Below, piece after piece: positions 7,900 to 53,897 of a DNA stretch of 64,000 bases. The DNA lies in the NCBI RefSeq assembly GCF_058153355.1, contig NZ_CM177019.1. One strand, written 5' to 3'. Below the pieces are notes generated by a model. It was given only the letters and a program-made list of their open reading frames with translations, did no database searches and had not been told where the DNA came from. The position numbers and the translations under genes were made by a program. The first letter of the stretch is position 1; the number at the start of each line of letters is the position of its first letter.

Positions 7900-15888
<7,989 letters not shown>

Positions 15889-16748: not shown

Positions 16749-16793
16749 TTCAACATCAGCCGTTCTGTCAAAATGGAGTAACTCCTGCTCAAA

Positions 16794-20166: not shown

Positions 20167-20303
20167 ATGTCCCTCATGATCTATTTATAGTCTATCGATA
20201 AATCTGATGTTATTGCTCTACCTGTAATTTTCATTCTTACGATTGTTTTGCAATGCAAAATATACCTCAGGCCATATTTATTCCTGAGGTATGTTTTGGT
20301 ATC

Positions 20304-21824: not shown

Positions 21825-22843
21825 CCAACCGGAAGAAGAATGCTGCCCGGCCTGTGGTGGCGGGCTCAGTCCTCTGGGATGTGATGTGTCAGAACAACTG
21901 GAGCTTATCAGCAGCGCCTTTAAGGTTATCGAAACACAACGTCCGAAACTGGCCTGTTGCCGGTGCGACCATATCGTGCAGGCTCCGGTGCCTTCAAAAC
22001 CCATTGCACGCAGTTATGCCGGAGCGGGGCTTCTGGCCCATGTTGTCGCTGGAAAATATGCAGACCATCTGCCGTTATACCGCCAGTCAGAAATATACCG
22101 TCGTCAGGGCGTGGAGCTGAGCCGTGCCACACTGGGGCGCTGGACAGGTGCTGTTGCTGAACTGCTGGAACCGCTGTATGACATCCTGCGCCAGTATGTG
22201 CTGATGCCCGGTAAAGTCCATGCCGATGATATCCCCGTTCCGGTCCAGGAGCCGGGCAGCGGTAAAACAAGGACTGCCCGGCTGTGGGTCTACGTTCGTG
22301 ATGACCGTAACGCCGGTTCGGAAATGCCTCCGGCGGTCTGGTTCGCGTACAGCCCGGACCGGAAAGGTATCCATCCACAGAATCATCTGGCCGGTTACAG
22401 CGGAGTGCTTCAGGCCGATGCTTACGGTGGTTACCGGGCGTTGTACGAATCCGGCAGAATAACGGAAGCCGCATGTATGGCTCATGCCCGGAGAAAAATC
22501 CACGATGTGCATGCAAGAGTGCCCACCGACATCACCACGGAAGCCCTGCAGCGTATCGGTGAACTGTATGCCATCGAGGCAGAGGTCCGGGGCTGTTCAG
22601 CAGAACAGCGTCTGGCGGCAAGAAAAGCCAGAGCCGCGCCACTGATGCAGTCACTGTATGACTGGATACAGCAACAGATGAAAACACTGTCGCGTCACTC
22701 GGACACGGCAAAAGCGTTCGCATACCTGCTGAAACAGTGGGATGCACTGAACGTGTACTGCAGTAATGGCTGGGTGGAAATCGACAACAACATCGCAGAG
22801 AACGCCTTACGGGGAGTGGCCGTAGGCCGGAAAAACTGGCTCT

Positions 22844-24667: not shown

Positions 24668-24852
24668 TCGCAGGTTCCGACAGCGGTGGCGAACATGCGG
24701 CGGTGTTGTACTCGCTGATCGGCACATGCCGTCTGAACAATGTGGGGCCAGAAAAATGGCTGCGTTACGTCATTGAGCATATCCAGGACTGGCCGGCAAA
24801 CCGGGTACGCGATCTGTTGCCCTGGAAAGTTGATCTGAGCTCTCAGTAAATA

Positions 24853-26796: not shown

Positions 26797-26798
26797 GA

Positions 26799-27572
26799 TC
26801 AGCAGGTGTTGCTTTTCGTCACGCCAGGCAATGGCGGGCAGAATGCGCCTGACCCAGACGTGGCGACGGAAATCTGCAACTCGTTGCCTGGCTTGGCTGC
26901 CTGCGTGAGTTCATGTTCTTCGCCATATTTTTCTTTTTGTTTCTTGGCTTCTTTTTCCAGCAATTTGATATTCTGAATCAGAGTTATCTCCACCGCTGCG
27001 CATGATTTGATTAATGACTCTTTCTCACTGGCGATGGCCGTCTGAAAACGCGTCGGATATCCTTTCAGCGATTTGTTAATATGCAGTATGTTTTTGCAAT
27101 TTCTACGCAATTTGTCGGCGATATCCTGAATGGCAAACAAATTTCTGTCTTCCAGGATATTGATGGAGTCAAATGGATCGGGAAGTGAGTCTGCGGAAAT
27201 ATTATTCTCATGAGGCAAGGGGGTGGCCTCGATGGCAGAAACGATCTGTTCATCTTGTGCATAGAGCACGCTGACGGTGAATGGTTCCCCGTTACTGTCT
27301 TTATGCGCTGCCGTTTTCTCATAAATGTCGTGCAAAATATTCCAGCGATGGGTAACCAGAATGGCTTGAGAGCCTGATTTTTTTATCGTCTCCAGCGCCG
27401 GGAGAGCGTTATCGGCATAGCCAGAGCGGTAGAGTGAGCTGGTTTTTCCGCTACCCGTAGGCCCCTGAAGCTGACAAAATCCTGCGATACGACGGGATGT
27501 TTTGGATTTTTTTGCCTGAGAAAGGGTGTATTCAATAACGGCATTGTAGGAACGTATTAAAGGGGCACTCAC
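26799..27572 (-). CDS. P-loop NTPase N-terminal segment (Walker A GPTGSGKTS)
   Basis: 257-aa ORF with Walker A near residue 40; low-complexity C-terminal tail suggests a frameshift into the next ORF. Confidence 0.45.
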   Translation of the reverse strand: MSAPLIRSYNAVIEYTLSQAKKSKTSRRIAGFCQLQGPTGSGKTSSLYRSGYADNALPALETIKKSGSQAILVTHRWNILHDIYEKTAAHKDSNGEPFTVSVLYAQDEQIVSAIEATPLPHENNISADSLPDPFDSINILEDRNLFAIQDIADKLRRNCKNILHINKSLKGYPTRFQTAIASEKESLIKSCAAVEITLIQNIKLLEKEAKKQKEKYGEEHELTQAAKPGNELQISVATSGSGAFCPPLPGVTKSNTC

Positions 27573-27885
27573 ATTTCACCTCATCCGTGTCAGGTTATCG
27601 AAGAGTAGAATTTCAGCAAATTCATGTTACACCGAACGGGTATCATTTCAATGTTTAATAATAATTTCCCCTTATAAAACAACGCTTATAATACATTCGC
27701 AGGTCAGATGATTTATCGGTGTGTTATTTGTTTGAATTTGGTGTTGTGGTTTTCTTTTTTTAACAATCTTCGATCTTCCTTCCACGACTTCCCCTTGCCG
27801 TTTTCAACCGAAAGCGGTATCTTTCACTTGCACCTGCAAAATCAGGTGCCGGGATTGGAACCCCGAAATGTAACCATACTGGCGA

Positions 27886-27910
27886 CACGTGACGCGTCTG
27901 CGTCTTTTTT
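27886..27910 (+). terminator. hairpin plus T-run (GACGCGTCTGCGTC-TTTTTTT)
   Basis: Short GC stem followed by seven T on the plus strand. Confidence 0.35.
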
Positions 27911-28075
27911 TATGTCGCGCGCTTAGCTACACCAAAATTATGGTGGGCTGGGCGGGGGCACCGTAAGGTGCGCCGGTTCCAGTATGGCCGGTAGTTCCAA
28001 CCTCGTTCAGTCCACCACCCATGAGATTGGAACCTCTGGTGGTGGTTTTCAAACCACATACTGGAGGCTGCCTTT

Positions 28076-28543
28076 ATGGCTACGATCCCCACTCAGACAC
28101 ACCCGTTACTTGCTGTTCCCTTCAATGCTGCCACAGATTTTACCGTACTGGCAGACCACTGTGAAAACTTCGCCGAAACCCTGATCGAAAGCGACGACCC
28201 GGTGCTGCGGCTGGCGCTTTGCGGGCGGCTTGCCGCCTGTCTGACTCTGCTGCAACCCACGCTGAACGAACCCATCCCGTCCCATCTGACTGACAGCCTG
28301 ACCGTTGATGCTCTACCTGCCGATATGCCCCGATTTGTCCCCGACGCTGAATTACTTTGTGACTACTCACTGACGCTGGCGCAACTTCTTATCGGGCAGG
28401 GGATGCTGCCAAAAATGGAGCAGACGATAACTGGCTTATTATGTGAACTGGTCTGGTATTTTGCCGCTGAAATGAAAGCCCCGCGTTGGCTGCGTACTGC
28501 CGGTGGCGTGAAGTTTATCGATGGTGTGGAGGCCAAAGCATGA
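28076..28543 (+). CDS. hypothetical protein (155 aa), translationally coupled to Ner-like gene
   Basis: ORF with no recognised motif; stop overlaps the next start. Confidence 0.4.
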   Translation: MATIPTQTHPLLAVPFNAATDFTVLADHCENFAETLIESDDPVLRLALCGRLAACLTLLQPTLNEPIPSHLTDSLTVDALPADMPRFVPDAELLCDYSLTLAQLLIGQGMLPKMEQTITGLLCELVWYFAAEMKAPRWLRTAGGVKFIDGVEAKA

Positions 28544-28746
28544 TGCAGTCTGACTGGCATCCTGCCGACATTATCGCCGGGCTGAAAAAACGTGGCACTT
28601 CGCTGTCAGCGCTTTCGCGTCAGGCTGGGCTGGCGTCCTCCACGCTGGCTAATGCGCTTACCCGCCGCTGGCCCAAAGGTGAAAGATTGATTGCCGAAGC
28701 GTTAGATGTTGCGCCTGAGAACATCTGGCCTTCGCGCTATCGCTGA
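28540..28746 (+). CDS. Ner/Nlp-family HTH DNA-binding protein
   Basis: MMQSDWHPADIIAGLKKRGTSLSALSRQAGLASSTLANAL...WPSRY resembles Nlp/Ner; start placed at internal Met of ORF 28486-28746. Confidence 0.6.
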   Translation: MMQSDWHPADIIAGLKKRGTSLSALSRQAGLASSTLANALTRRWPKGERLIAEALDVAPENIWPSRYR

Positions 28747-28892
28747 TGTCCTTCCGGCGCAGCCACGATACGGAAGCTGCGCCGCATTTCGTTTATCTGA
28801 TTTGTCATAATCCTTTGAACCGCAAAAACAGTTTTCTATTATCGGCCTTCTTACCACGAACTAAGCTCCCGCCTGTACAAAATGCTTCATGA

Positions 28893-28920
28893 CCTGAAAG
28901 AAGCGCCTGATGTATCAGGA
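28893..28920 (+). repeat. imperfect direct repeat copy 1 (CCTGAAAGAAGCGCCTG...TATCAGGA) upstream of pemI
   Basis: About 30 bp shared with a second copy at 29862-29889. Confidence 0.45.
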
Positions 28921-29093
28921 TGGTCGCCGTTTTACCGGCAATGCCGCCTTTGAAAACTGCCGGATCTGTCCTTCGATGGATTAAGGCTTTCTTCATACTT
29001 TATTACGCTAAGGAAATCACAATGAATCTGATGAATAATTGTGCATCGCCTGCCGTAGATGTTATATTAAAATATAATATTCGGAGGTGCTCT

Positions 29094-29351
29094 ATGTATA
29101 CAACTCGCCTGAAAAAGGTCGGCGGATCCATCATGCTGGCGGTTCCCCCCGCCGTGCTGAAAACGCTGGAGCTGTCGACGGACAGCGAAGTGGGTATGAC
29201 CATTGATAATGGCTGCCTGATTATTGAACCCCAGAAACGGCCCCGTTATTCGCTTGAGGAGCTGTTGGCGCAGTGCGATCCGCACGCAGAAATGAGCGAA
29301 GAGGATCGGGAATGGATTGATGCGCCTGCGGTGGGCAAGGAGATCCTGTAA
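29094..29351 (+). CDS. pemI: PemI/MazE-family antitoxin
   Basis: MYTTRLKKVGGSIMLAVPPAVLK...YSLEELLAQCDP closely resembles plasmid R100 PemI; start at internal Met of ORF 28920-29351. Confidence 0.8.
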   Translation: MYTTRLKKVGGSIMLAVPPAVLKTLELSTDSEVGMTIDNGCLIIEPQKRPRYSLEELLAQCDPHAEMSEEDREWIDAPAVGKEIL

Positions 29352-29684
29352 ATGGACAGAGGGGAAATCTGGCTGGTTTCACTGGATCCGATTGCAGGTC
29401 ACGAGCAAAGCGGAAAACGTCCGGTGCTTATCGTATCGAAGGCATCGTTTAACAAGCTGACCCGGCTACCCGTTGTTGTTCCCGTTACCAGCGGTGGAAA
29501 CTTCGCCCGTGCAGCCGGTTTTACCGTCTCACTGGACGGTGCGGGAACAAAAACAACGGGCGTTATTCGCTGCGACCAGCCCAGAACCATTGATATGGGA
29601 GCCCGGAGCGGAAAGCGACTGGAACGTATACCCGATGCTGTCGTGAATGAAGTGCTGGCCCGACTGGAGGCCATTCTGAGCTGA
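29352..29684 (+). CDS. pemK: PemK/MazF-family toxin
   Basis: MDRGEIWLVSLDPIAGHEQSGKRPVLIVS...LPVVVPVTSGGNFARAAGF closely resembles PemK. Confidence 0.85.
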   Translation: MDRGEIWLVSLDPIAGHEQSGKRPVLIVSKASFNKLTRLPVVVPVTSGGNFARAAGFTVSLDGAGTKTTGVIRCDQPRTIDMGARSGKRLERIPDAVVNEVLARLEAILS

Positions 29685-29861
29685 TGCTTTTTATGTAAAC
29701 TGAATGATGGCGCTGTCATATACAGCGCCATCATTTTTTATAACGACAAGTGATTAAAAAATCCTTTTGCAGGTAAAAACAGTTTTTCCTTTCTCCGCCA
29801 GCGGTACTGGCATAGTCTCCCCCTTGCCCTATGCTGTCGTTGACAGCGCCACGCTTCACAA

Positions 29862-29889
29862 CCTGAAAGAAGCGCCTGTTATCAGGAGG
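29862..29889 (+). repeat. imperfect direct repeat copy 2, downstream of pemK
   Basis: Matches 28893-28920 with a few mismatches; partial similarity extends ~40 bp further. Confidence 0.45.
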
Positions 29890-30119
29890 TTGAGCCCTTT
29901 ACCGGTGCAGACCTTTGCAAACACCGGGTCGCAGAACATCGCGACGGAGGCCAGAGTTTTAACACGATACGTCCTTTTACTGCGCCAGCCTGCTGGTCTG
30001 AATCTGCCCCGCGCCGGAATTTTCCCGGTCAGCTTATATTTGCTGACACCCTCAGCACCTTTTACCTCACGGGCTGCGGCATGCATTTGCCGCAAGGCAT
30101 TTGCTGACGCGTGCCCGTA

Positions 30120-30250
30120 AAACTGCACCAGACGGTAAATTTTCAGACGCTGCACCAGACCCGTGCGTCACTTTAACCGCGCAGAGCGGGAAAGTGACGC
30201 ACGCAATCCCTTTCGACCTGCACCAGAAAACTCAACTGCGCCAGCTCACG
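30120..30250 (-). repeat. array of CTGCACCAG/CTGCGCCAG motifs upstream of the recombinase gene
   Basis: At least four copies near 30123, 30149, 30220 and 30238, in opposite orientation to the array at 31618-31881. Confidence 0.45.
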
Positions 30251-30535
30251 GCTGGAGTCTGACACCGCCTTTTCAGGCCATTTACCTATAAGGAGAACAT
30301 GAATCGATACCGAGGCGGATCCGGACGATCCGGGGGATAACCCGCGCAAGCGGGCGGCTGCTCAGAGAGCACAACCGAAGCCCCACCACACCTCAACGGC
30401 TGCCGCCCCGGCGCTCAGGTATCGTTCGCAGCCCCGACAAAAAAACAGGGGCTATCGGCCTGTGCGCCGGGGAAAGCTGTATCAGTGTTGGTTTTTTGGG
30501 GGATGAGTTTGCGGCAATCATGAAAAGGGGAATGT

Positions 30536-31423
30536 ATGGGGATACTGGAGCAGGAAATGACGCGACTGGCGCAGCAGGCGGGTGGCAGCTACAAAACTGT
30601 GGATGACCGCATCAGGCTGGCGCAGCGGTTTTGTGAGCGTCTGGTTCTGGCGCAGAACGTACAAATCCGCCGGGTGGAGCAGCTTAAGGCGCGGCATATT
30701 GAAGGCTATGTTCGTGAACGGCTGGCGCAGGGCATCACAAAGCGTTCCCTGCAAAATGAGATGGCGGCGGTGCGCTGCATTCTGAAACAGGCCGGGCGTG
30801 ACAGGCTGGCGCAGAGTGAGCGGCTGAATAACCGCTCGCTGGGATTGTCCGGAGCATCCCGTAACGGGACGAAGCTGGCTATTACACTGGAGCACTATCG
30901 TGATGTGCTGGAGACCGCCCGCGTAAAAGATCCGGGGCTGGCGGCAGCGCTGGAGCTCTCAAGGTTGATGGGATTACGTTCGCAGGAGGCGGTGCAGAGT
31001 GTACAGTCGCTGAAAACGTGGATACAGGCGCTGGAGCGTGGTGAGTCCCGGTTAACCGTGGTGTTCGGCACCAAAGGCGGACGGCCCCGCGAGACGATTA
31101 TTCTTGATGCTGGCGTAGTTAAAAAAGCGCTGGATAATGCGCTGGTGGTGGCTGAGGATCGTCACGGCAGGCTGATAGATAAGCCCGATCTGAGAAGCGC
31201 GATGAAATACTGGCACAGCCAGGCGTCGGGTCTTGGTTTAACTGGCGCATATTCCCCGCACTCGTTGCGCTATGCCTGGGCGCAGGATGCTATTCGTCAT
31301 TATCTGGCGCAGGGATTTTGTGAGAAGGAAGCGCTGGCGATGACGGCGATGGATTTGGGTCACGGCGACGGGCGCGGGCGGTATGTGGCGCAGGTTTACG
31401 GGCGAAAGGGGGATGCTGATTGA
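30536..31423 (+). CDS. small tyrosine recombinase/integrase-family protein
   Basis: 295 aa; C-terminal HSLRYAWAQ box and candidate nucleophile in GRGRYVAQVYG; LAQ-rich N-terminal domain. Confidence 0.5.
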   Translation: MGILEQEMTRLAQQAGGSYKTVDDRIRLAQRFCERLVLAQNVQIRRVEQLKARHIEGYVRERLAQGITKRSLQNEMAAVRCILKQAGRDRLAQSERLNNRSLGLSGASRNGTKLAITLEHYRDVLETARVKDPGLAAALELSRLMGLRSQEAVQSVQSLKTWIQALERGESRLTVVFGTKGGRPRETIILDAGVVKKALDNALVVAEDRHGRLIDKPDLRSAMKYWHSQASGLGLTGAYSPHSLRYAWAQDAIRHYLAQGFCEKEALAMTAMDLGHGDGRGRYVAQVYGRKGDAD

Positions 31424-31446
31424 TAGCTTCAGACTTGCAATATGAT

Positions 31447-32005
31447 GTTATTCATCGTTTTCCGTACAAAATTATTTGCCTCAAATAATTTTGGGTGATT
31501 TCCTATTAATCCCGGGTTATTCATCGTTATTCACCGAAAAAATTTCTACGTAGAAATTTTTTGTTCGATTTCCTCTCAATAAAAATGCTTCTGAACGGTA
31601 TGGCCTATTAACAGGCCTCTGGTGCAGTATTACGGTATTTTACTGATGATTGCGCCAGCAAAAGGAAAAGGCCAAATAATGGTAAAGGGCGACTAAGGGT
31701 AACAGCGCCAGACCGGAAAGGGCCAAAAGGCTAAAAGGCCTTAACACTGGCGCAGTTTGATGTTTATCCAATAATATCTGGCGCAGTCCTGACATAGACA
31801 GGTGACAGCGGACTGGTGCAGTAAATGGTGACATTGAACTGGTGCGGATACGATGTATTGGGAAATCAGTTTCTGGTGCAGATTATCTGGCAGCTATCGT
31901 CTGGAGATTATTCACTGTGAATAATTTTCGTTATTTGCCTATTGATTCATAATATATTGATAGGTTTTCGTACAAAATTATTCTACGTCGAATAATTTTG
32001 TACGC
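31447..32005. promoter_or_regulatory. cluster of perfect palindromes (candidate operators or recombination sites)
   Basis: CAAAATTATTTG-CCT-CAAATAATTTTG (~31466-31492); 24-bp AAAAATTTCTACGTAGAAATTTTT (~31539-31565); ATTATTCAC-T-GTGAATAAT (~31907-31925); GTACAAAATTATTC...GAATAATTTTGTAC (~31969-32002). Confidence 0.5.
31618..31881 (+). repeat. array of CTGGYGCAG direct repeats at ~26-35 bp spacing
   Basis: Copies near 31618, 31747, 31778, 31813, 31839 and 31873. Confidence 0.5.
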
Positions 32006-32055
32006 TTTCCGATTAATAACCCAAAAGTTGAAGATAAATCCTTTCAATGTAAAAA

Positions 32056-32088
32056 GCAGATCCGGATTCAATCGGGATCTGCTTTTTC
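32056..32088. terminator. bidirectional hairpin terminator between recombinase region and integrase 3' end
   Basis: AAAAAGCAGATCCGGATTCAATCGGGATCTGCTTTTT: 10-bp stem flanked by A-run and T-run. Confidence 0.55.
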
Positions 32089-32116
32089 ATTCTTAACAAA
32101 TCATATTGCTACTGGC

Positions 32117-33379
32117 TCAGGCCGCCTTATGCCGTCGCGCATAAATATACGGCGCAACGTATCCCTCGCGGCTCACGTCCAGATAATCCGACCACCACTG
32201 CATCATGGCTGTACGGGCGTCAAGATGTTCAGCCCGGTGGATATACGCCGCCCGAACGCTGTTGCGCTCCTGATGACTTATCTGCCGCTCCACCGCATCC
32301 CGTGACCAGAGCTCAGATTCCACTAATGCGCTACAGGCCATTGCCCGGAAGCCATGCCCGCAAACGTCAGTTTTAGTATCGTAACCTATCAGACGCAGCG
32401 CCCGGTTGATGGTGTTTTCACTCATCGGTTTATACGGGTTATGGTCGCCGGGGAACACCAGTTCCAGATGGCCGGAAATTTCGTGTATCTGCTTCAGAAT
32501 GGCAATAGCCTGTCGGGAAAGTGGCACAATATGTGGGGTGCGCATTTTCGCGCCGCGACCAGAGAAACGGACTTTCTCAATCGCTTCCCTTGTGGCGGGG
32601 ATGATCCAGATTTTGTTTCTGAAATCTATCTCACCCCAGCGGGCAAAGCGCAGCTCGCTGGAACGGATAAACAGGTGGAGAGTCAACACCACCGCCAGCC
32701 TCGTAAGCTGTCGTCCCTGCCGATAGTCGCCAATGCGCTCAAACAATTCGGGCAACCGCTCCAGCGGCAGAGCGGGATAGTGATTCTTAACCGGCGGCGC
32801 GGTGACGCCTTCCAGATGCTGCGCCGGGTTGTTTTCGGTCAGTCCCTGCTGAACGGCGTAACGCATGATGTTGCAGAGTTGCTGCCGGGTACGGGACGCG
32901 ACTTCCAGAAAACCTTTATCCTCAATAACCCGCAGTAACGCAGTGAAATGCTGCGTTTTCAGCGTGGTAACGGGCAGATGGCCAATAGCCGGAAATATAT
33001 GGTTATTCATGCTGGCGAGAATGCGCTCTGCATAATCAGGCGACCACTTTTTGTTGGTTTTGTGCCATGCAAGCGCTACAGCTTTAAAACACTTTTCCGG
33101 TGAAGTGGCGGCTTTTTCATCCATGCGTTGTTGGGCGGGGTTGATATTCTGCGCCAGTAGCTTGCGGATAGCATCGCGCTGTTGCCGGGCTTCAGCGAGA
33201 GAAATCAGCGGATATGCGCCCAGACTGACGCGGGACTCTTTACCACCGAAGCGATACTTGAGATACCAGATACGTGAACCGCCGGGATTGACCAGCAAAT
33301 ACAGACCGTGTGAATCAGACAGTTTGACGGGTTTGGAAGAGGGTTTTAAGTTACGGATTTTTGAATCGTTTAAAGACAT
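32117..33379 (-). CDS. int: P4-type tyrosine integrase
   Basis: ORF 32117-33481; start placed at MSLNDSKIRNLKPSSKPVKLSDSHGLYLLVNPGGSRIWYLKY, a P4-integrase-like N-terminus; adjacent to tRNA-Asn. Confidence 0.8.
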   Translation of the reverse strand: MSLNDSKIRNLKPSSKPVKLSDSHGLYLLVNPGGSRIWYLKYRFGGKESRVSLGAYPLISLAEARQQRDAIRKLLAQNINPAQQRMDEKAATSPEKCFKAVALAWHKTNKKWSPDYAERILASMNNHIFPAIGHLPVTTLKTQHFTALLRVIEDKGFLEVASRTRQQLCNIMRYAVQQGLTENNPAQHLEGVTAPPVKNHYPALPLERLPELFERIGDYRQGRQLTRLAVVLTLHLFIRSSELRFARWGEIDFRNKIWIIPATREAIEKVRFSGRGAKMRTPHIVPLSRQAIAILKQIHEISGHLELVFPGDHNPYKPMSENTINRALRLIGYDTKTDVCGHGFRAMACSALVESELWSRDAVERQISHQERNSVRAAYIHRAEHLDARTAMMQWWSDYLDVSREGYVAPYIYARRHKAA

Positions 33380-33540
33380 TTGGGGGTCACTCCAGAATCG
33401 AACCAACCTGACCCCAAATCTGACCACCAAATTAACCGGATGCGGAGGGAAAACTGAATACGCATCTGGAAAGATTTTCACGCTAACTTATTGAATCAAT
33501 ATCAAATAAAGACTAATAAGGTAGCGTAAGAATCGAAATT

Positions 33541-33616
33541 TGGCTCCTCTGACTGGACTCGAACCAGTGACATACGGATTAACAGTCCGCCGTTCTACCG
33601 ACTGAACTACAGAGGA
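33541..33616 (-). tRNA. asnT: tRNA-Asn (GUU), island integration target
   Basis: Exact reverse complement of the 76-nt tRNA-Asn at 1688-1763; symbol by synteny with yeeJ and mtfA. Confidence 0.9.
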
Positions 33617-34749: not shown

Positions 34750-35775
34750 TTACTTGGAATATTTTCTTGGAATATTTTCAGGTAACGGGACATCAAGTGT
34801 CGGTGAAACTTTAACCTTCCTGTCATAGATTAGCACTTGCCCCTCGGTTTTGTGACCAGAGAAAAGTTGCTTATCCCGACTGCTTCCTTCATAGTCTGAA
34901 ATTCCTTTCGCCTTCAGATCATGAAAGGTGAAGTCGGTTAAAATACCTGAAATTTTGCCTGCGCGATTTCTTGCTTCTACCCACATTTCGTTAAAGCCTT
35001 TGTACATATATCGGTTGCCGTATTGATTGCTGATTACATAGGCGGATGTTGGTAACTGTTTTGCTTTTTCGATCGCCGCCTGTAATCGTGGACTCCATGC
35101 TTTTATCTGTTTTTTCCCTGTTTTCCCTTGCTGGATAAAGATCCCGTCGTTTCCAATCTGCTCCCATTTCAGCGATAACACATCGGAAACCCTCGCTGCA
35201 CACAGATAGGCAATTTCCATTGCGATAAAAACAGGAAGAGGTGCAACGCTTAATACTGCCTGGTATTCTTTGTCGGTTACATATCGTTCCCGGTTTTTGG
35301 CCTTGAATTTACTTACACCTGCACATGGGTTAGCCTTCACGTACCCTCGCTCATACCCCCAACTGTAAACGCGGGACATACTGCTTTTTTCATGGTTGGC
35401 TTGCGTTTTACTCTGTTCCCCTCTCTTGTCCATGTATCGACGGATGTGTTCTGGTTTTATGGAATCTGCCGGCACCTTACCGAATACGGCAAGCAACTTT
35501 TTTTGATGTTGCAGATAATCTTTTTGTGTTCTTGGACTGAGGTCACTGTAATAGGCGCTGGCGAGGAATTTTTCCCACAAGCGACCGAATGTCATTGCAC
35601 GATCGCGATTATTTACAGTTTCCTCATACTTTTTCCATAAAGCAGCTAAACCATCCTTGATGGCGGTTAGTGTTACAGATTCTCTGGATGTTGGTTTCCA
35701 TACATAACTATATTTATTTGGGTATACATTTGGAGGTAATTTTTCGTGTTCAGGATTTTTCCTTCGTCTTCCCAT
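34750..35775 (-). CDS. int: phage tyrosine integrase
   Basis: 341-aa ORF abutting the tRNA-Ser 3' end with an excisionase immediately upstream. Confidence 0.75.
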   Translation of the reverse strand: MGRRRKNPEHEKLPPNVYPNKYSYVWKPTSRESVTLTAIKDGLAALWKKYEETVNNRDRAMTFGRLWEKFLASAYYSDLSPRTQKDYLQHQKKLLAVFGKVPADSIKPEHIRRYMDKRGEQSKTQANHEKSSMSRVYSWGYERGYVKANPCAGVSKFKAKNRERYVTDKEYQAVLSVAPLPVFIAMEIAYLCAARVSDVLSLKWEQIGNDGIFIQQGKTGKKQIKAWSPRLQAAIEKAKQLPTSAYVISNQYGNRYMYKGFNEMWVEARNRAGKISGILTDFTFHDLKAKGISDYEGSSRDKQLFSGHKTEGQVLIYDRKVKVSPTLDVPLPENIPRKYSK

Positions 35776-36036: not shown

Positions 36037-38508
36037 TTAAAAATCAGCCTGACTCGGGATCAGTTTTTGCCAGATTGCTGAAACGTATTTTGCCTGGTAA
36101 CGAGCGTCATCAAGTGCATTATGGCGCTCACCTTCGAATGGAATGGCAGTTCTGGCATCGAAGTCTATGGCTTTCCCCAGCTCAACGATTGTGCGTACAT
36201 CGCGATCGTTGCAGTAGCGCCACGGGCAGGGGATACCCTGTCGTTCGTATGAACGGCGTAAAATCACGTTGTCGAAGTTGGCCCCATTTCCCCAGACCTG
36301 AACAAAAAATTCACCGGAGTTTTCGTCGATAAATTCTCGCAATTGTAACAGTGCATCATCTAACGGGATTTCATCGGTCATAATGGCAGATTGCGCTTCG
36401 CGTGATTGCTTCAGCCACCATTTAATGGTGTCCCGATCAATGACTCCGCCAGCAGTTTCCAGATCGATAGTCTTACTAAATTCCGGTCCCATATCTCCGG
36501 TTTGCGGATCGAAAAATATTGCACCTATTGAGATAATCGGGGCATCAGGATTTTCTCCCATGGTTTCGAGGTCGATCATTAGATGGTCACACGTTCTGCT
36601 GGTGGATGTGATTTCGTGATGACCGTTCACCGTAATTAAGGGATCTGCCGTCTCGCCAGTTTCATTATCGCTGGCGTGGTCCTGAGCGCTGCCAGCATTC
36701 TCCTTGTGTGGATGTTCAGCGCCTTCCATTTCCTCCGGATCATTTTCCTGAACTTCAACCTGATACTCTTCATCGAATGTTTCTTGGTATGTTGCGTCGC
36801 CCATCACCGCGCCACAATCAGGGCAGTTGCCGCCGCCGGTCTGACCGCAGGCGGTGCAGACTTTTTCCACTTCCTGTTGCGCCACTGGTTCAGGCTGTTT
36901 CGTTTCTGGCTCGTTTTGTAACGCATTTGGGCTGTTTTGTTCCGCTTTTTGGTAGTTCCGTTCCGATTCATGCTGGTTCTGGTTCACAGAATCGCGGGTC
37001 TGGCTCCCCTTAACCCATTTCGGATCATTCGGGTCACTAATCCCTTCAACAAATTCACCGCGAGAGGCCGCAAGCAACTTATCGGCGTCAGGCTGGCTGA
37101 TATTGGCTGCCTGCATAATTTTGCTTACTTCGTCAGCTGTAACTTTTACCGGCTCTGGTTGTGCGGTCGTGTCAGATGCACCAGTATTTTGTTGTGAACC
37201 TGAGTATGTACCGTTTTTGCGGGCGAAATATTCTTCTTTCGTGATTTCAGTAGCCCCGGCAGCCAGCGCCTTATCCAGACCAGAAAGTTTGTTTGCGCGA
37301 CCGTATTTTTCGCCATCCTTGTCGGTGAAGAGAAAGTAGAACGGCCCCTCACGCTCTACAGATGGTTTGACTTCCACTTTGCATTCGGTTTTTTCGTTGT
37401 CCGGAATTGCCGTTTCCACTGCATCAGTTTCTGGTACTGGCGACGAGAGAGTATCAGTTGCGCTCTGATTTCTTCCTTCATCTTCAAACACGCCCTTTGT
37501 AGTCAGGTATTCAGTAATGTATTTGTTCAGTGCCACAGGGTCTTTGTGAATGTCGATCGGACGTTCACGGACAAGGCCAAAAATAGTCTGGCGGTCGTAG
37601 CGAAGGGCATCAGGCTGTTTGCGCATTGATGCCGAGATACGCTTCCAGTCTTCGTGGTCGTTGTCGATAACTTCATTTTTTGCCCAGCGATGGATGCTGC
37701 CGTCAATGTTTCCGGCATCCACATCACCAGGCCAGAGAGCGTAGGCCAGTTCGTCATCCAGTGTTTTCCATGTCTGCTTGTATTCGCGATGAGTGGCAGC
37801 AATGACCGGGCTGATTTTTCCTGTTGAATTTTCAGTGTTCTGTTGATTGGCTCTGGCGCGGGCGAGATCAACAACAGACGTGTATTTTCCGGTTTCCTTG
37901 CGTTCACCTTCGCGACGTTTTTTCCAGATGCGCATCTCTGCCTGAATTTCGGGCCATTTGGCACCAGGCTTACATTTATGCTTAACCCACCCGATGGCAT
38001 GCAGCTTAAGCTCCGGATACATGGCGTTAACTTCTGGCATTTTCATCAACGCTTCAACGATATGTCCGTCGAATGTTGCCATGTCTTCCTGCAACAATTC
38101 CTGCGCGCTAATCACCATATCAACGGTGATGTTTTCACATGTGTCGAACTTAACCATGACAGCGTTCTGTACTTCAGGGGCCAGCTTGTCAAAAGTGACG
38201 TTCATCGGATCTGATTCAGTCTCAACCGGGACAAAGGAAGCAGACTCCTCATCCCAGCGGTTTTCCTGCATATATTCAGCATCCCAGGAATCGAGGGCAG
38301 GGCGGGGTATACCGGGTTTATCCTCGCAAACAAGAAATTTATAAGCGCAGTCCTGAGCAGCCGGATAATGTTCCAGGAATTGCCAGTGAAATTTGGCACG
38401 GGCGCGGCGTTCGTCGCCGGCTTCAATGGCAGTGGCTACAGGTTTAGCGCCTTCTTCTTTTGTTGCCTTTTCGTCCGGAATGGCGGCGCAAATAAAGACT
38501 TTACTCAT
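36037..38508 (-). CDS. phage protein with C-terminal DnaQ-like (DEDD) 3'-5' exonuclease domain
   Basis: 823 aa; C-terminus has MIDLETMG and HNALDD exonuclease motifs; central acidic region and a CxxC...CPDC cluster. Confidence 0.55.
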   Translation of the reverse strand: MSKVFICAAIPDEKATKEEGAKPVATAIEAGDERRARAKFHWQFLEHYPAAQDCAYKFLVCEDKPGIPRPALDSWDAEYMQENRWDEESASFVPVETESDPMNVTFDKLAPEVQNAVMVKFDTCENITVDMVISAQELLQEDMATFDGHIVEALMKMPEVNAMYPELKLHAIGWVKHKCKPGAKWPEIQAEMRIWKKRREGERKETGKYTSVVDLARARANQQNTENSTGKISPVIAATHREYKQTWKTLDDELAYALWPGDVDAGNIDGSIHRWAKNEVIDNDHEDWKRISASMRKQPDALRYDRQTIFGLVRERPIDIHKDPVALNKYITEYLTTKGVFEDEGRNQSATDTLSSPVPETDAVETAIPDNEKTECKVEVKPSVEREGPFYFLFTDKDGEKYGRANKLSGLDKALAAGATEITKEEYFARKNGTYSGSQQNTGASDTTAQPEPVKVTADEVSKIMQAANISQPDADKLLAASRGEFVEGISDPNDPKWVKGSQTRDSVNQNQHESERNYQKAEQNSPNALQNEPETKQPEPVAQQEVEKVCTACGQTGGGNCPDCGAVMGDATYQETFDEEYQVEVQENDPEEMEGAEHPHKENAGSAQDHASDNETGETADPLITVNGHHEITSTSRTCDHLMIDLETMGENPDAPIISIGAIFFDPQTGDMGPEFSKTIDLETAGGVIDRDTIKWWLKQSREAQSAIMTDEIPLDDALLQLREFIDENSGEFFVQVWGNGANFDNVILRRSYERQGIPCPWRYCNDRDVRTIVELGKAIDFDARTAIPFEGERHNALDDARYQAKYVSAIWQKLIPSQADF

Positions 38509-38987: not shown

Positions 38988-39545
38988 TCAACAATGAATT
39001 TTGAGTAATTGCTCTACAGTCATATTTTTAATTGCGCCCCGGTTAACAAGAGTCCATCCCTGTTCTTCCAGATAAAACCGGAAAGTCTCCATGGTACAGA
39101 CCCGTGCGCCATCAGGGACGGTTTCGGTGAATCTGATGTTGCCGCGTTCGTCGAAGTGAACAACCAGGGTGCGGCCATCGCCTGGAATTATTTTGTCAGT
39201 GGGTGGGGTGTTATTCTGGCGCAGCTCGGCCTCCATGCGGTCGAACTCAGCAATGTAGGTTTCTTTGAATGCAGCGGCTTTTTTGCCTGTGAAGCCCATC
39301 ACCAGGAAAACGAAGCCGTTTTTGGTGATTTGGTACATTGGGCGTTTTTCGCCTTTGGCGTCGGTATAGGTGACGGGCTTAAAATTAAGCCGGTTAAACT
39401 CCGGCGAGCATTCGAGAGTTTCGATCTTCTGAATAACGTTTTTGTGCATTTTCCGGAAGAACTCCGCAACCGCAACAGACGTAGTGACAGCGCGACCATT
39501 TTCGATGGTTACGTCAGGGTGAGAAAGGGTAAGGATAGTAGCCAT
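38988..39545 (-). CDS. Rha-family phage regulatory protein
   Basis: Start placed at MATILTLSHPDVTIENGRAVTTSVAVAEFF within ORF 38988-39839. Confidence 0.55.
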   Translation of the reverse strand: MATILTLSHPDVTIENGRAVTTSVAVAEFFRKMHKNVIQKIETLECSPEFNRLNFKPVTYTDAKGEKRPMYQITKNGFVFLVMGFTGKKAAAFKETYIAEFDRMEAELRQNNTPPTDKIIPGDGRTLVVHFDERGNIRFTETVPDGARVCTMETFRFYLEEQGWTLVNRGAIKNMTVEQLLKIHC

Positions 39546-40392
39546 GATGGCAGCCTCGATAGTCAGTTTAAATAACTCACCACCAGAGGTAGCAATCTCA
39601 TGGGTGGTGAGACGCACAGGGTTGCTACAACCGGTGACTACCGAAACCGGCCAGCCTTGCGGCTGCCCTGCACGCCCCACCATAATCTGAATGTGGCTGT
39701 GCTTGACGCATAAAAAAACCGCCTGAGCGCGGTTATGCGCAGTAGTCATCGTCGGGGTAGCAATCCCGGCACCCGTTTTATGAGGTGCAGGTGCACTATA
39801 ATTCCACCCGTTCTGGTTTTCAATAGCTACATTCAACATTTTCTCTTTCCTTTCATCACCGAAGTGAACTTTGTTGATGCGGTGCCTGGTGCCTCCAGGT
39901 GACGTTAACCAGTTAACAATTAACGCCGGAATAAGGGATTTTCCTTACTGTTTTAACTGTTCCGCGTGCGCTGAGCCGCATTCACCGCATCACAAAATTC
40001 ACTTTAAAAAGGGCGGACATCAGCCAGCAATTAAACCGATGCCGCCAAAGGTAATCAACATGGGTTGTTGCAGCGGGGTTGTCGCTCAGGCGTATGGTCA
40101 ACCTGACAACCCGGTGGACATTTGCGAGGAACGGAGAACCCCCGCCATACTTACCGCCGCGCCATTTCGCGGATTGCCACAACCGGAAGCGCACGGTCGA
40201 AGAAAATTTAACGACAGGCTATCTATGAACCAGCAACCTCGCCGTGCGCTTTCGCGTTATGCTCTGACTTTTCAGGGAAATATCCTTTCAGTAAACTGTC
40301 AGTGCCGGATACTCACCCGTGTCCGGCGCACCTACTCCACCTTACCCGTGGAGAACTCCTTAATTACCAACCTTAGCTTCGTTGGTTAGCTA

Positions 40393-48806: not shown

Positions 48807-49187
48807 ATGACTGAACGTACAGAATTCGTTTTGCCTTACCCGCCGACGGTGAACACTTACTGGCGGCGTCGTGGTGGAACGTACTTTATATCGGAAACGG
48901 GAAAGCGTTATCGCCGGGATGTGGCGCTTATTGTCCGTCAGCAGCGACTGAAATTAAGCCTGTCCGGAAGACTGGCGATAAAGATTATTGCAGAGCCACC
49001 GGATAAGCGCCGTCGTGACCTGGACAATATCCTGAAGGCACCACTGGATGCGCTGACGCATGCCGGACTACTTATAGACGACGAGCAGTTTGATGAAATC
49101 AATATTGTGCGCGGTCAGGTCGTTCCTGGTGGGCGACTGGGCGTGAAGATTTACGAAATAATGCATGACGGGCAGGTCAAAAAATGA
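48807..49187 (+). CDS. rusA: RusA-family Holliday junction resolvase
   Basis: 126 aa with RusA-like core (PDKRRRDLDNILKAPLDALTHAG). Confidence 0.75.
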   Translation: MTERTEFVLPYPPTVNTYWRRRGGTYFISETGKRYRRDVALIVRQQRLKLSLSGRLAIKIIAEPPDKRRRDLDNILKAPLDALTHAGLLIDDEQFDEINIVRGQVVPGGRLGVKIYEIMHDGQVKK

Positions 49188-50005
49188 AGCTGGAAGATTT
49201 ACCGAAATACTATTCCCCAAAATCGCCAGGCCTGACTGATGCATCCGCCTCGACGTCAAAAGATGCGCTGAGTATCACTGATGTGATGGCTGCGCAGGGT
49301 ATGACACAAAACCTGGCTGAGATGGGATTTTCTGCGTTCCTGGGGAAAATGGGCATCAGTATGAATGACAGGGCGCGGGCAACAGAATTACTGGCAGATT
49401 ATGCACTCAGTCGGTGCGATCGCGTGGCGGCGTTAAGAAAACTTCCGGCAGAAATAAAACCGACAGTGATGCGCATTATGGCTTCGTACGCTTTTGAGGA
49501 TTATGCCCGCAGCGCAGCGAGTAAAAAGCAATGCCCTTGTTGCCGGGGGGAAAAATTTATTGAAAGCGAGGTTTTTACAAACAAGGTTCAGTATCCGGAT
49601 GGCAAGCCGCCAGTATGGGCAAAGTGTACGAAAGGTGTGTATCCGTCTTACTGGGAAGAATGGAAAAAAGTCCGGGAGGTGGTGAAGGTTTCCTGTCCTG
49701 AATGCAAAGGGAAGGGGGAGATTTCCACTGCCTGTAAAGACTGTCGTGGGCGTGGTGTCGCCATTCATCGTGAAGAGTCGGAAAAACGGGGCATGCCTGT
49801 TATCAGGGACTGCCAGCGTTGTGGCGGTCGGGGCTATGAAAGGCTGCCATCAACGGAGGCATTTAATGCCATATGCAAAGTGACGAGTGCTATTACACTT
49901 GATACGTGGAAAAAATCAGTGAAGCGCTTTTACGATACGTTGGTGGTTCGGTTTGACATTGAAGAGGCATGGGCGGAGCGGCAGTTAAAGAGGGTAATGC
50001 GATAG
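49184..50005 (+). CDS. late-gene antiterminator Q-like protein
   Basis: 273 aa with several CxxC zinc-finger pairs; lies between rusA and the lysis cassette. Confidence 0.55.
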   Translation: MKLEDLPKYYSPKSPGLTDASASTSKDALSITDVMAAQGMTQNLAEMGFSAFLGKMGISMNDRARATELLADYALSRCDRVAALRKLPAEIKPTVMRIMASYAFEDYARSAASKKQCPCCRGEKFIESEVFTNKVQYPDGKPPVWAKCTKGVYPSYWEEWKKVREVVKVSCPECKGKGEISTACKDCRGRGVAIHREESEKRGMPVIRDCQRCGGRGYERLPSTEAFNAICKVTSAITLDTWKKSVKRFYDTLVVRFDIEEAWAERQLKRVMR

Positions 50006-50007
50006 TG

Positions 50008-50108
50008 TTGTTGATTTTTCCCGAATTTGTGGTAAATTCGCCATAAAGATGGGCGTTTTGTGCCTGACGTTAGAGAAATTTTTACAGCCCGCCATCGAGC
50101 GGGTTTTT
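50008..50108 (+). promoter_or_regulatory. candidate late promoter and Q-dependent terminator (PR-prime and tR-prime equivalent)
   Basis: TTGATT...TAAATT promoter-like hexamers just after the Q stop, then hairpin CCCGCCATCGAGCGGG-TTTTTTG. Confidence 0.45.
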
Positions 50109-50232
50109 TGTGCCAGAAAAACGGTACAGAACATTAAACGCGCTGGTGGTTGCGAATACTGGTCTTTCAGCTTGCTGGCTGTTTCGACAAGAGTTATTGG
50201 TATGTCACGTTAACCGGAAAAGGGAAAAAGGC

Positions 50233-50430
50233 ATGCTAAAACAGCAGGATATGACCGAAACCGCCAGAGTGGTGTTTAATGAATTAAGCGTCACCGAACC
50301 GGCGACCGTCGGGGAAATTGCGCAGAACATTTATCTTTCACGCGAACGCTGCCAGTTAATACTGACCCAGCTTGTTATGGCGGGTCTGGCAGATTATCAG
50401 TTCGGTTGTTACAGACGCCTTCCGCAGTGA
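50233..50430 (+). CDS. hypothetical small phage protein
   Basis: Start at internal Met of ORF 50110-50430; weak ribosome-binding site. Confidence 0.25.
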   Translation: MLKQQDMTETARVVFNELSVTEPATVGEIAQNIYLSRERCQLILTQLVMAGLADYQFGCYRRLPQ

Positions 50431-50580
50431 AGGCTTTTTTATTTGTGGTAATGGGCGGCTGGTGGGTGTTAGCGGCACCTGCCAGCCATCTGCTCATGCG
50501 TTGGGATCACAAGCAAACCTCAGGCCCATCTGCTTTGCGCAAAAGCAGAATGAGCCTATCAGAGAAGTGCTTATTGATCT

Positions 50581-51633
50581 ATGACTAATACTGTAAAAAT
50601 ATCCAGTTGTGAGTTAATCAACGCTGATTGCCTGGAATTTATCCAGACCTTACCGGAAAACTCTGTCGATCTGATAGTCACAGACCCGCCATACTTTAAA
50701 GTGAAGCCCGAGGGCTGGGATAACCAGTGGAAGGGCGACGAGGATTACCTGAAATGGCTGGATCAGTGTCTGGCGCAATTCTGGCGGGTACTGAAGCCTG
50801 CCGGAAGTCTCTACCTGTTCTGTGGTCATCGCCTGGCATCTGATATCGAAATCATGATGCGTGAGCACTTTAATGTGCTGAACCACATTATCTGGGCGAA
50901 GCCGTCCGGACGCTGGAACGGATGCAGCAAGGAAAGCCTGCGGGCGTATTTCCCGGCAACAGAACGCATTCTGTTTGCAGAACATTATCAGGGGCCATAC
51001 CAGCCCAAAAATGACGGCTATGCGGCAAAGGGGCGCGAACTAAAACAGCACGTCATGGCCCCGCTGATTTCTTACTTTCGTGATGCGCGTGAATCACTGG
51101 GAATAACGTCAAAACAGATAGCGGAAGCCACCGGAAAGAAAAACATGGCTTCGCACTGGTTTGGTACCAGTCAGTGGCAATTACCGAACGAGGTTGATTA
51201 CAACAAATTGCAGGCGTTGTTTGCGCGTGTTGCGGCAGAAAAACATCAGCGCGGGGAACTGGAAAAGCCACACCACCAGCTGGTGGCATCTTATGATTCA
51301 CTTAATCGCAAATATTCTGAATTGCTGGATGAGTTTAAATCTCTCCGGCGCTATTTCTCCGTATCAGTATCCGTGCCTTATACCGATGTCTGGATGCATA
51401 AGCCCGTTCAGTTCTACCCGGGTAAACATCCGTGCGAGAAACCGGCGGATATGCTCAGGCAAATAATCAATGCCAGTAGTCGACCTGGTGATCTGGTTGC
51501 TGATTTTTTTATGGGATCCGGTTCCACAATAAAAGCAGCAATGGCGCTGGGGCGTCGGGCCTTAGGTGTTGAGCTTGAGTCAGAGCGGTTTAACCAGACA
51601 GTGAAAGAGATAAACGAGCTGGTGGGGAAATAA
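50581..51633 (+). CDS. DNA methyltransferase (likely N6-adenine; DPPY motif IV before FxGSG motif I)
   Basis: VTDPPYF near N-terminus and FFMGSGST near C-terminus; no adjacent restriction enzyme. Confidence 0.7.
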
Positions 51634-51700
51634 TCTGGTGGCCACGTCAGGTGGCCTTTTTATTTCCATTACACAGCACCCGCATCTGCGAGGTGGGGTT

Positions 51701-51916
51701 ATGAAATCCATGGATAAGTTAACAACGGGTGTCGCCTATGGCACCTCAGCAGGTAGTGCTGGCTACTGGTTTTTACAGTGGCTTGATCAGGTCAGTCCGT
51801 CACAGTGGGCTGCGATTGGTGTACTGGGGAGTCTGGTTCTGGGCTTTCTGACTTATCTGACGAATCTGTATTTCAAAATAAGAGAAGACAAGCGTAAGGC
51901 TGCGAGAGGTGAATAA
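51701..51916 (+). CDS. phage-21-type class II holin (pinholin) with dual start MKSMDK
   Basis: [53 protein letters not shown] closely resembles S21. Confidence 0.8.
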
Positions 51917-52413
51917 TGTCGCCATCATTACGCAAGGCTGTTGCAGTTGCTATTGGTGGTGGGGCTATTGCCATAGCGTCTGTGCTCATCACTGGCCCAG
52001 GTGGTAACGATGGTCTGGAAGGTGTCAGCTACATACCATACAAAGATATCGTTGGCGTATGGACTGTATGCCACGGACACACCGGAAAAGACATCATGCT
52101 CGGTAAAACGTATACCGAAGCAGAATGCAAAGCCCTCCTGAATAAAGACCTTGCCACTGTCGCCAGACAAATTAACCCGTACATCAAAGTCGATATACCG
52201 GAAACAACGCGCGGCGCTCTTTACTCGTTCGTTTACAACGTGGGCGCTGGCAATTTCAGAACATCGACGCTTCTTCGCAAAATAAACCAGGGCGATATCA
52301 AAGGCGCATGTGACCAGCTACGTCGCTGGACATATGCTGGCGGTAAGCAATGGAAAGGGCTGATGACCCGTCGTGAGATTGAGCGTGAAGTCTGTTTGTG
52401 GGGGCAGCAATGA
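51916..52413 (+). CDS. SAR endolysin (lysozyme with N-terminal signal-anchor-release domain)
   Basis: N-terminal Gly/Ala-rich TM segment [23 protein letters not shown] followed by a lysozyme-like domain. Confidence 0.75.
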
Positions 52414-52874
52414 GCAGAGTCACCGCGATTATCTCCGCTCTGGTTATCTGCATCATCGTCTGCCTGTCATGGGCTGTTAATCATTACCGTGATAACGCCA
52501 TTACCTACAAAGAGCAGCGCGACAAAAACGCAAGAGAACTGAAGCTGGCGAACGCAACCATTACTGACATGCAGCAGAGACAGCGTGATGTTAATGCACT
52601 CGATGCTAAATACACGAAGGAGTTAGCTGATGCGAAAGCTGAAAATGAAACTCTGCGCGCTGATGTTGCCGCTGGTCGTCGTCGGTTGCACATCAAAGCA
52701 GTCTGTCAGTCAGTGCGTGAAGCCACCACCGCCTCCGGCGTGGATAATGCAACCAGCCCCCGACTGGCAGACACCGCTGAACGGGATTATTTCACCCTCA
52801 GAGAGCGGCTGATGACGATGCAGATGCAACTGGAAGGGGCACAGGAGTATATCCGCACTCAGTGCATTAAGTAG
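52398..52874 (+). CDS. i-spanin (Rz)
   Basis: N-terminal TM segment then coiled-coil; follows the endolysin. Confidence 0.7.
52630..52812 (+). CDS. o-spanin (Rz1) embedded in Rz in another frame
   Basis: Lipobox LVVVGC and proline-rich PPPPPAW; entirely inside the Rz gene. Confidence 0.7.
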
Positions 52875-52916
52875 CCTTTTTATCGTGGTAAACATTTCGC
52901 AGGGTATGAGGTATTT

Positions 52917-53267
52917 ATGCCATCACTAATCCCACGTGCCTGCCGTAAGCGAGGCTGCGCAGGCACAACAACAGACAGCTCTGGCTACTGTGATAAACAT
53001 CGCGGTGAAGGCTGGGTGCAGCACCAGCGCGGACTGAGCTGCCACCAGCGTGGCTATGGCTCAAAATGGACGGTGATTCGTGCCCGTATTCTGAAGCGCG
53101 ATAAAGGTCTGTGTCAGTTGTGTCTGCGTGTCGGTGTGGTGAGCGAGGCGAAAACCGTCGACCACATCATCCCGAAAGCGCATGGCGGAACAGACGCAGA
53201 CAGCAACCTGCAGAGTCTGTGCTGGCCCTGCCATAAAGCGAAAACAGCGCGCGAACGAATCAGGTGA
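52917..53267 (+). CDS. HNH endonuclease
   Basis: Cys-rich 116-aa protein with HNH-like DHIIPKAHGGTD...CWPCH, upstream of terminase genes. Confidence 0.65.
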   Translation: MPSLIPRACRKRGCAGTTTDSSGYCDKHRGEGWVQHQRGLSCHQRGYGSKWTVIRARILKRDKGLCQLCLRVGVVSEAKTVDHIIPKAHGGTDADSNLQSLCWPCHKAKTARERIR

Positions 53268-53414
53268 TAATTATTCTCACTTGTAGGGAGGGGCGGGGCA
53301 AATCCCTGCAGCCCTGGCTGTCCGGGACCGCCCGCCAACCCTTCCTCGCATCGCCGCAGGTTCGAAAACTTTTTTTTGGGAATGCGATCAAACGATTGAT
53401 AGGTAAAATCGATT

Positions 53415-53897
53415 ATGTCAGGACCCCCGAAAAACCCGCCACGCCTGCATTTGATACGAGGCAATCCCTCAAAGCGTCCCGTTAAAGACGCCAAAAAAAA
53501 CGCTAAAAAGGACGAAAAAGGTCTCCCTAAAATTCCGCAGCATTTAGGGGCGCAGGGAAAGTACTGGTTCAGGCGAATGGCGGAAGAGCTGAATGCGGAA
53601 GGGATCATTTCTCAGCTTGATGCGCGTGCACTCGAGTTGCTGGTGGAAGCCTACACCGAATACCGGCATCACTGCGAAACCCTCGATGTTGAGGGTTATA
53701 CCTACCGCACGGAAACGCAGAACGGTGATGTGCTGATTAAGGCACACCCGGCTGCTGCGATGAAAGCGGATGCCTGGAAGCGGATCCGGGCGATGCTTGC
53801 AGAATTTGGTATGTCACCGGCAAGCCGGGCGAAAGTAAATATCGCCGGACCGGATGATGTTGATCCGCTGGCAGAACTTTTAAAAGCGAGAGACTGA
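53415..53897 (+). CDS. terminase small subunit
   Basis: 160-aa basic protein directly upstream of the large terminase. Confidence 0.6.
   Translation: MSGPPKNPPRLHLIRGNPSKRPVKDAKKNAKKDEKGLPKIPQHLGAQGKYWFRRMAEELNAEGIISQLDARALELLVEAYTEYRHHCETLDVEGYTYRTETQNGDVLIKAHPAAAMKADAWKRIRAMLAEFGMSPASRAKVNIAGPDDVDPLAELLKARD

Follow-up and report, generated by a model that had tools for sequence, protein, structure and literature searches.

A predicted phage 21/DLP12-type pinholin, SAR endolysin and spanin lysis cassette in a mosaic lambdoid prophage

Overlapping open reading frames (ORFs) at positions 51701-52874 (+) of the 64,000-nucleotide stretch of contig NZ_CM177019.1 (assembly GCF_058153355.1) analysed here, hereafter the window, raise the question of which lysis strategy they encode, and whether they belong to a maintained prophage or to a decaying one. 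The ORF listing and reading of the sequence revealed four undisrupted lysis genes, S, R, Rz and Rz1, beginning at the first S ATG (51701) and ending with the Rz stop codon (52874). The S stop codon and the R start codon overlap by a single base (TAATG), while R and Rz overlap by 4 nt (ATGA). These genes almost certainly represent a pinholin/SAR-endolysin/spanin lysis module of the phage 21/DLP12 type in a lambdoid prophage, with the mechanism predicted from near-identity to these systems. The features of the cassette are as follows:

51690..51698 (+), Shine-Dalgarno-like GAGGTGGGG before the S dual start, with a GAGG core 7 nt 5' of the ATG at 51701 (sequence reading)
51701..51916 (+), S, 71-aa product from Met1, putative antiholin form (S71 equivalent; ORF, PF04971 and phage 21 alignment)
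51710..51916 (+), S, 68-aa product from Met4, putative active pinholin form (S68 equivalent; M-K-S-M start as in phage 21)
51916..52413 (+), R, predicted SAR endolysin, GH24/T4-lysozyme-type muramidase, 165 aa (Pfam, 3hde/4zpu)
52410..52874 (+), Rz, inner-membrane spanin subunit (i-spanin), 154 aa (Pfam, PHROG 13)
52617..52622 (+), AAGGAG Shine-Dalgarno sequence of Rz1, within Rz, 7 nt 5' of the ATG at 52630 (sequence reading)
52630..52812 (+), Rz1, outer-membrane lipoprotein spanin subunit (o-spanin), 60 aa (Pfam, PHROG 3198, lipobox)

In a PHROGs profile search the cassette matched holin, endolysin and Rz-like spanin families. No NCBIfam model matched S or Rz1, and the matches of R and Rz to models in this collection were sub-threshold, while Rfam at gathering thresholds recovered no known RNA families between 49.9 and 53.5 kb.

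Phage 21 was represented by a curated full genome (OL657228.1), in which S21-71 is annotated as 'antiholin' and S21-68 as 'holin class II', followed by a 'SAR endolysin', an 'i-spanin' and an 'o-spanin'. The two cassettes have in common the gene order, the 1-nt S/R and 4-nt R/Rz overlaps, the embedded Rz1 in the +1 frame and the MKSMDK start of S. Their products share 67/71 (94.4%; S), 159/165 (96.4%; R), 135/154 (87.7%; Rz) and 55/60 (91.7%; Rz1) identical amino acids, with the Rz protein here being one residue longer than its phage 21 counterpart. At the nucleotide level, the two cassettes are 90% identical overall and their S genes 84%, the differences falling mostly at synonymous sites. 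The first-pass annotation had proposed a phage 21-type cassette, a proposal at odds with any lack of similarity to S21 and R21; the alignments instead revealed clear similarity, and the label stands for S and R. It is less exclusive for the remainder, as the spanin pair is equally close to that of phage lambda and R is marginally nearer to RrrD of the E. coli K-12 prophage DLP12. The identities to the DLP12 essD-rrrD-rzpD/rzoD products are 91.5% for S, 97.6% (161/165) for R, 87.0% for Rz and 90.0% for Rz1. S and DLP12 EssD agree in all of their first 26 residues, whereas the middle of S (WLDQVSPSQ...LGF) is like that of S21 and unlike that of EssD.

The predicted pinholin and SAR endolysin

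The S product matches the 'Bacteriophage P21 holin S' family (Pfam PF04971, Phage_holin_2_1; Bitscore: 120.4, cut-off 26; e-value: 3e-35) and differs from S21-71 of OL657228 by the substitutions I7L, S8T, I11V and R64K, with residues 12-63 identical. The MKSMDK dual start remarked upon in the first-pass annotation is encoded by ATG AAA TCC ATG GAT AAG at 51701-51718, identical to phage 21, and its in-frame ATGs at codons 1 and 4 predict products of 71 and 68 residues. The ribosome-binding site coincides in position with the GGAGG annotated for phage 21 S. In dual-start holins of this kind, the longer product is an antiholin with an extra N-terminal positive charge, the role of which has been described (PMC9636201). 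A conserved RNA structure setting the S71:S68 ratio was considered and dropped, as folding of the 66 nt round both S starts gave structures that differed between the window and phage 21 and of which neither stood out from those of shuffled sequences (z = -0.57 and -0.86, respectively).

The membrane segments of S, R and Rz were delimited by a simple hydropathy calculation in place of a dedicated topology predictor, and this check, which the first-pass annotation had called for, gave the expected segments in S and at the N-terminus of R. Residues 7-25 of S form a weak first segment (mean Kyte-Doolittle: 0.59; Gly/Ala/Ser/Thr content: 63%) and residues 36-54 a strongly hydrophobic second one (mean Kyte-Doolittle: 1.72), after which comes a highly charged C-terminal tail. 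The second segment contains G40, S44 and G48, and we take G40-x3-S44-x3-G48 to be the helix-packing motif of the S21 second membrane segment. The holes formed by S21-68 are heptameric, with channels of ~2 nm, and serve the pinholin/SAR pathway (PMC9636201). With its 94% identity to S21, the S protein would be expected to form similarly small, depolarising holes that are impassable to a soluble endolysin.

The R protein belongs to the lysozyme family (Pfam PF00959, Phage_lysozyme; Bitscore: 156; e-value: 1e-45) and matches the R21 structures 3hde/3hdf, with the match to 3hde extending over residues 1-165, SAR segment included (e-value: 2e-108), as well as the RrrD structure 4zpu (161/165; e-value: 3e-109). 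It differs from R21 by P2S, A11V, S29G, K68E, M98T and I159V. SAR endolysins are recognized by a weakly hydrophobic, Gly/Ala/Ser/Thr-rich N-terminus that follows one to three basic residues, and by the catalytic triad E-X8-D-X5-T (PMC9239132). The N-terminal signal-anchor-release segment postulated in the first-pass annotation could be placed at residues 8-27, a Gly/Ala-rich stretch (60% Gly/Ala/Ser/Thr) directly after R6 K7, and the catalytic motif is complete (E35-X8-D44-X5-T50). The definitive test of a SAR endolysin entails Sec-dependent export, inactive tethering in the membrane and release upon depolarisation (PMC9239132). All three behaviours would be expected of R, given its 96-98% identity to R21 and RrrD.

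Lyz of phage P1, the first SAR endolysin to be described, is caged by a disulfide, and its activation requires a Cys in its SAR domain. It belongs to the same lysozyme family as R and follows the same N-terminal SAR logic, being recovered as a distant match (PDB 1xjt/1xju; e-value: ~3e-8). The cysteines of R are located at residues 52, 71, 132 and 160, with none in the SAR segment, suggesting that activation by refolding in the R21 mode should apply, and not the disulfide mode of P1 Lyz.

The arrangement could also be read as lambda-like, with S a large-hole holin, R a soluble cytoplasmic endolysin and the hydrophobic N-terminus of R not a SAR segment. What speaks for this reading is the shared S-R-Rz/Rz1 order and the resemblance of the spanins to those of lambda (Rz: 89.6%; Rz1: 90%). 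The lambda holin S105/S107, however, has three membrane segments and forms large holes, while lambda R is a soluble transglycosylase, and both are unrelated to S and R of the window, with ~20% identity in forced global alignment against 94-96% to the phage 21 proteins, for which the pinholin/SAR behaviour has been experimentally established. Furthermore, the match of R to the crystal structures of R21 covers the whole protein (165 residues), with the SAR segment included. A lambda-type pairing of large-hole holin and soluble endolysin is effectively refuted by these alignments, and retains a negligible probability beside the pinholin and SAR endolysin assignment.

While 16% of the bases of S differ from those of phage 21 S, only 4/71 residues do (dS: 1.2; dN: 0.034; dN/dS: 0.028), and the dN/dS of R is 0.05-0.09 against phage 21 and DLP12. 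The values of 0.03-0.09 for the two genes in comparison with phage 21 and DLP12 point to purifying selection, and suggest maintained genes rather than drifting remnants.

The nested spanin genes and the proposed lysis pathway

The Rz protein matches the 'Bacteriophage Rz lysis protein' family (Pfam PF03245, Phage_lysis; Bitscore: 177; e-value: 3e-52) and the 'Rz-like spanin' family PHROG 13 (e-value: 9e-81; aligned over 1-154 of 154), and combines an N-terminal membrane segment (residues 4-23) with two cysteines, C99 and C152. Rz1 lies wholly inside Rz, as the first-pass annotation had observed: its start is offset by 220 nt (3x73 + 1) from that of Rz, and hence in the +1 frame, while 62 nt separate its end from the Rz stop, and it covers 0.47-0.87 of the Rz length. 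The typical position range of embedded +1 Rz1 genes in i-spanin genes is given in PMC6139136. The lipobox and proline run noted at the same time correspond to V17-V18-G19-C20 (VVGC), followed by T21/S22, and to a penta-proline stretch at P32-P36 (PPPPP). A further cysteine is found at C29, and nine of the 40 residues of the mature part are Pro. The lipobox consensus [LVI][ASTVI][GAS]C, the role of the proline region and the sensitivity of the penta-proline of o-spanins to mutation have been described, as have the homotypic and required disulfides at Rz C99/C152 and Rz1 C29 in the lambda spanin family (PMC6139136).

Short alternative-frame ORFs are common in the ORF list, and the Rz1 frame might be viewed as a chance ORF inside Rz from which no protein is made. 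Its translated product, however, matches the Pfam family 'Lipoprotein Rz1 precursor' far above the cut-off (Bitscore: 71, cut-off 27.9; e-value: 6e-20) and PHROG 3198 (e-value: 3e-30), and shares 55/60 residues with the annotated phage 21 o-spanin. It is preceded by AAGGAG at a distance of 7 nt, contains the consensus lipobox and the penta-proline run, and public records contain the exact 60-aa sequence under the name 'Rz1 family lipoprotein'. The Pfam score, the identity to phage 21 and the motifs effectively refute a chance origin, which is left with next to no probability, and Rz1 is retained as the predicted o-spanin. The RefSeq record that was inspected lists only a 'class II holin', a 'lysozyme RrrD' and a 'lysis protein', without Rz1; both Rz1 and the dual start are often left out or under-named by automatic annotation.

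In comparison with lambda, the spanins are 89.6% (Rz) and 90.0% (Rz1) identical, with C99/C152, C29 and PPPPP conserved. The pair is as close to lambda as to phage 21 (Rz: 89.6% versus 87.7%) because lambda and phage 21 share this module. Disruption of the outer membrane, or membrane fusion, by Rz/Rz1 would be expected from the ~90% identity to the proteins of both phages.

A lysis pathway can be proposed on the basis of the near-identity to phage 21 and lambda, in which the individual steps are established. Late in the lytic cycle, the lysis genes would be transcribed from a late operon controlled by the Q antiterminator, by a presumed route. The S68 pinholin would build up within the inner membrane and, at a fixed moment, open numerous nanometre-scale holes through which the proton motive force collapses, with S71, which has the additional Lys2, delaying hole formation. 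Meanwhile R would be exported via Sec, its weakly hydrophobic N-terminal SAR segment holding it in the inner membrane in an inactive state, and depolarisation would release it to refold and cleave the peptidoglycan through its E35/D44/T50 site. Inner-membrane Rz and the outer-membrane lipoprotein Rz1 would form a complex that spans the periplasm and which, once the cell wall is gone, would disrupt the outer membrane, probably by fusing both membranes. Given the differences from S21 (four positions) and R21 (six positions), the timing of lysis could differ from that of phage 21.

Prophage setting and occurrence of the cassette

The cassette is located within a mosaic lambdoid prophage, integrated beside tRNA-Ser, that comprises Q, a DNA methylase, the lysis genes, HNH and terminase genes, an HK97-like head and a contractile tail, and the late operon starts with the cassette. 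Upstream of the cassette are found genes for a DUF968/HNH protein, RusA, Q, a phrog_331 ORF and an orphan DNA methylase. The integrase gene and the elements between Q and S are as follows:

34750-35775 (-), integrase gene, abutting tRNA-Ser(cga)
49184-50005 (+), Q antiterminator gene
50086-50105 (+), terminator-like hairpin (terminator scan)
50110-50430 (+), phrog_331 ORF, function unassigned
50417-50434 (+), terminator-like hairpin (terminator scan)
50581-51633 (+), orphan type-II-like N6/N4 DNA methylase gene (PADLOC MTase_II; e-value: 4e-153)
51640..51656 (+), terminator-like hairpin with T-run, between the methylase gene and S (terminator scan; fold -12.2 kcal/mol, z = -2.5)

A scan of the + strand from 49900 to 53500, including the Q-to-S interval (50006-51690), yielded no sigma-70-like site to which the late promoter after Q could be assigned. 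Together with the three terminator-like hairpins between Q and S, this suggests that expression of the lysis genes would depend on Q antitermination.

Homology to other prophages with the same cassette starts at 51684, 17 bp 5' of S, suggesting that the hairpin at 51640..51656 forms part of the upstream insert; to judge from the extent of this homology, position 51684 is a typical mosaic junction. The relatives carry tRNA genes or no called gene at the position of the methylase. Phage 21 likewise differs in its flanks, with tRNA genes upstream and bor downstream of its cassette, as opposed to the DNA methylase upstream and the HNH-terminase genes downstream in the window. No restriction enzyme gene adjoins the orphan methylase gene (50581-51633). 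The methylase could be envisaged as tied in its expression to the lysis/late operon via Q antitermination, modifying progeny DNA just before its release, but we consider this highly improbable; even so, the arrangement would count as a moron at the well-known hotspot for insertions between Q and S.

Directly after the cassette, and before the P27-family small terminase gene, an HNH endonuclease of 116 aa is encoded (within the region 52917-53897 (+)), a pairing of HNH and terminase genes as known from HK97-like phages. A bor gene, present in phage 21, lambda and DLP12, is absent downstream of the cassette.

The cassette is widespread. Of 5426 complete E. coli genomes, 5207 contain matches to its DNA, 2931 of them with at least 80% coverage, at a median of three places per genome among those with any match, and 551 phage records match as well. 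The exact S, Rz1 and Rz proteins are found on ~995, ~998 and ~1000 contigs, respectively, in a public protein collection, and the exact R protein on 6 contigs. The best loci compared by BLAST are 95-98% identical over the cassette, with none identical. The whole Q-to-HNH stretch is present at a coverage of at least 80% in a single genome (1/5426), while annotations of other E. coli genomes include similar methylase-Q-holin neighbourhoods. The cassette shows no departure from the known pinholin/SAR-endolysin/spanin family and is as such already known, its surroundings being the sole unusual feature of this copy.

The abundance of such cassettes bears on a further reading, in which the copy in the window is left over in a defective (cryptic) prophage, from which no phage would be released and in which the genes are silent or used by the host. 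DLP12 is a decayed cryptic prophage of this kind, with borD downstream of its lysis genes, and the nearest named relative of R is its protein RrrD (161/165). Furthermore, near-identical cassettes occur in decayed prophages, such as that of FDAARGOS_944, with a frameshifted Q and large terminase and a portal gene split by an IS element, and many of the matching places (median of three per matching E. coli genome) are probably remnants. In the window, however, every neighbouring gene that was examined is intact. These include the integrase, Q, methylase and HNH genes, and downstream of the cassette the P27-family small terminase, large terminase, portal, S78 protease, HK97-type capsid, connector, tail sheath and tube genes, with the window ending inside the tail genes. 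The strong purifying selection on S and R likewise argues against a relic cassette. We consider this reading unlikely, and favour a lysis module that is maintained in its prophage. The outcome is a secure annotation of pinholin/antipinholin, SAR endolysin, i-spanin and o-spanin genes, of little wider importance.

Other elements in the window

The chromosomal backbone at 2000-7600 (yeeN-amn-shiA-glycosyltransferase) reaches no more than 98.6% identity to the complete E. coli genomes, with most of them (4043/5416 records) at 90-95%, suggesting either an Escherichia strain outside that collection or divergent alleles in this region. It is followed by a gene for a yeeJ-like inverse autotransporter adhesin (7900-15963 (-); 2687 aa), with an IAT_beta domain and then 16 Big_1 and 10 Invasin_D3 repeats. 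Between this gene and tRNA-Asn (33541-33616 (-)) lies an island of ~17 kb (16300-33616), which has a P4-type integrase gene (32117-33481 (-)) at its tRNA-Asn end and also encodes a MazF/PemK toxin (29352-29684).

A Gabija anti-phage system is encoded in the island (16368-20166 (-)). The gajA gene is intact (18094-20166 (-); 690 aa; PADLOC GajA e-value: 3e-290), while GajB appears to be distributed over two ORFs, with 16794-18122 matching positions 4-435 of the 579-position profile and 16368-16748 matching positions 453-575. The split profile match suggests a frameshift or stop near 16750-16790. Three further island ORFs, at 20304-22004 (566 aa), 24853-26796 (647 aa) and 26799-27572 (257 aa), match neither Pfam nor PADLOC profiles, and as they adjoin defence genes they may represent uncharacterised defence genes. 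The 566-aa ORF overlaps, on the opposite strand and by ~300 bp, that of an IS66-family transposase (21688-22893 (+)). A group II intron follows directly after the transposase ORF (the two together at 21688-24667), with Rfam matches to the intron D1-D4 domain (22917-23033) and 3' domain (24590-24667) and an ORF for its reverse transcriptase/maturase (23355-24587). An EFASI RNA (30299-30428 (+); Rfam RF02957; Bitscore: 119) is located just 5' of an integrase-like ORF (30536-31423) with Pfam Integrase_1 and Phage_int_SAM_2 domains.

In the early region of the prophage, an 823-aa ORF (36037-38508 (-)) matches Pfam only near its C-terminus (residues 642-813), to a Rv2179c-like 3'-5' exoribonuclease domain, with no assignment for its first ~640 residues. 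Finally, two pairs of isrK sRNA and C4 antisense RNA were detected, all above the Rfam gathering score, of which one (27830-28022 (+)) is found in the tRNA-Asn island and the other (39600-39788 (-)) in the prophage, inside a Rha/Ash-family ORF (38988-39839 (-)).
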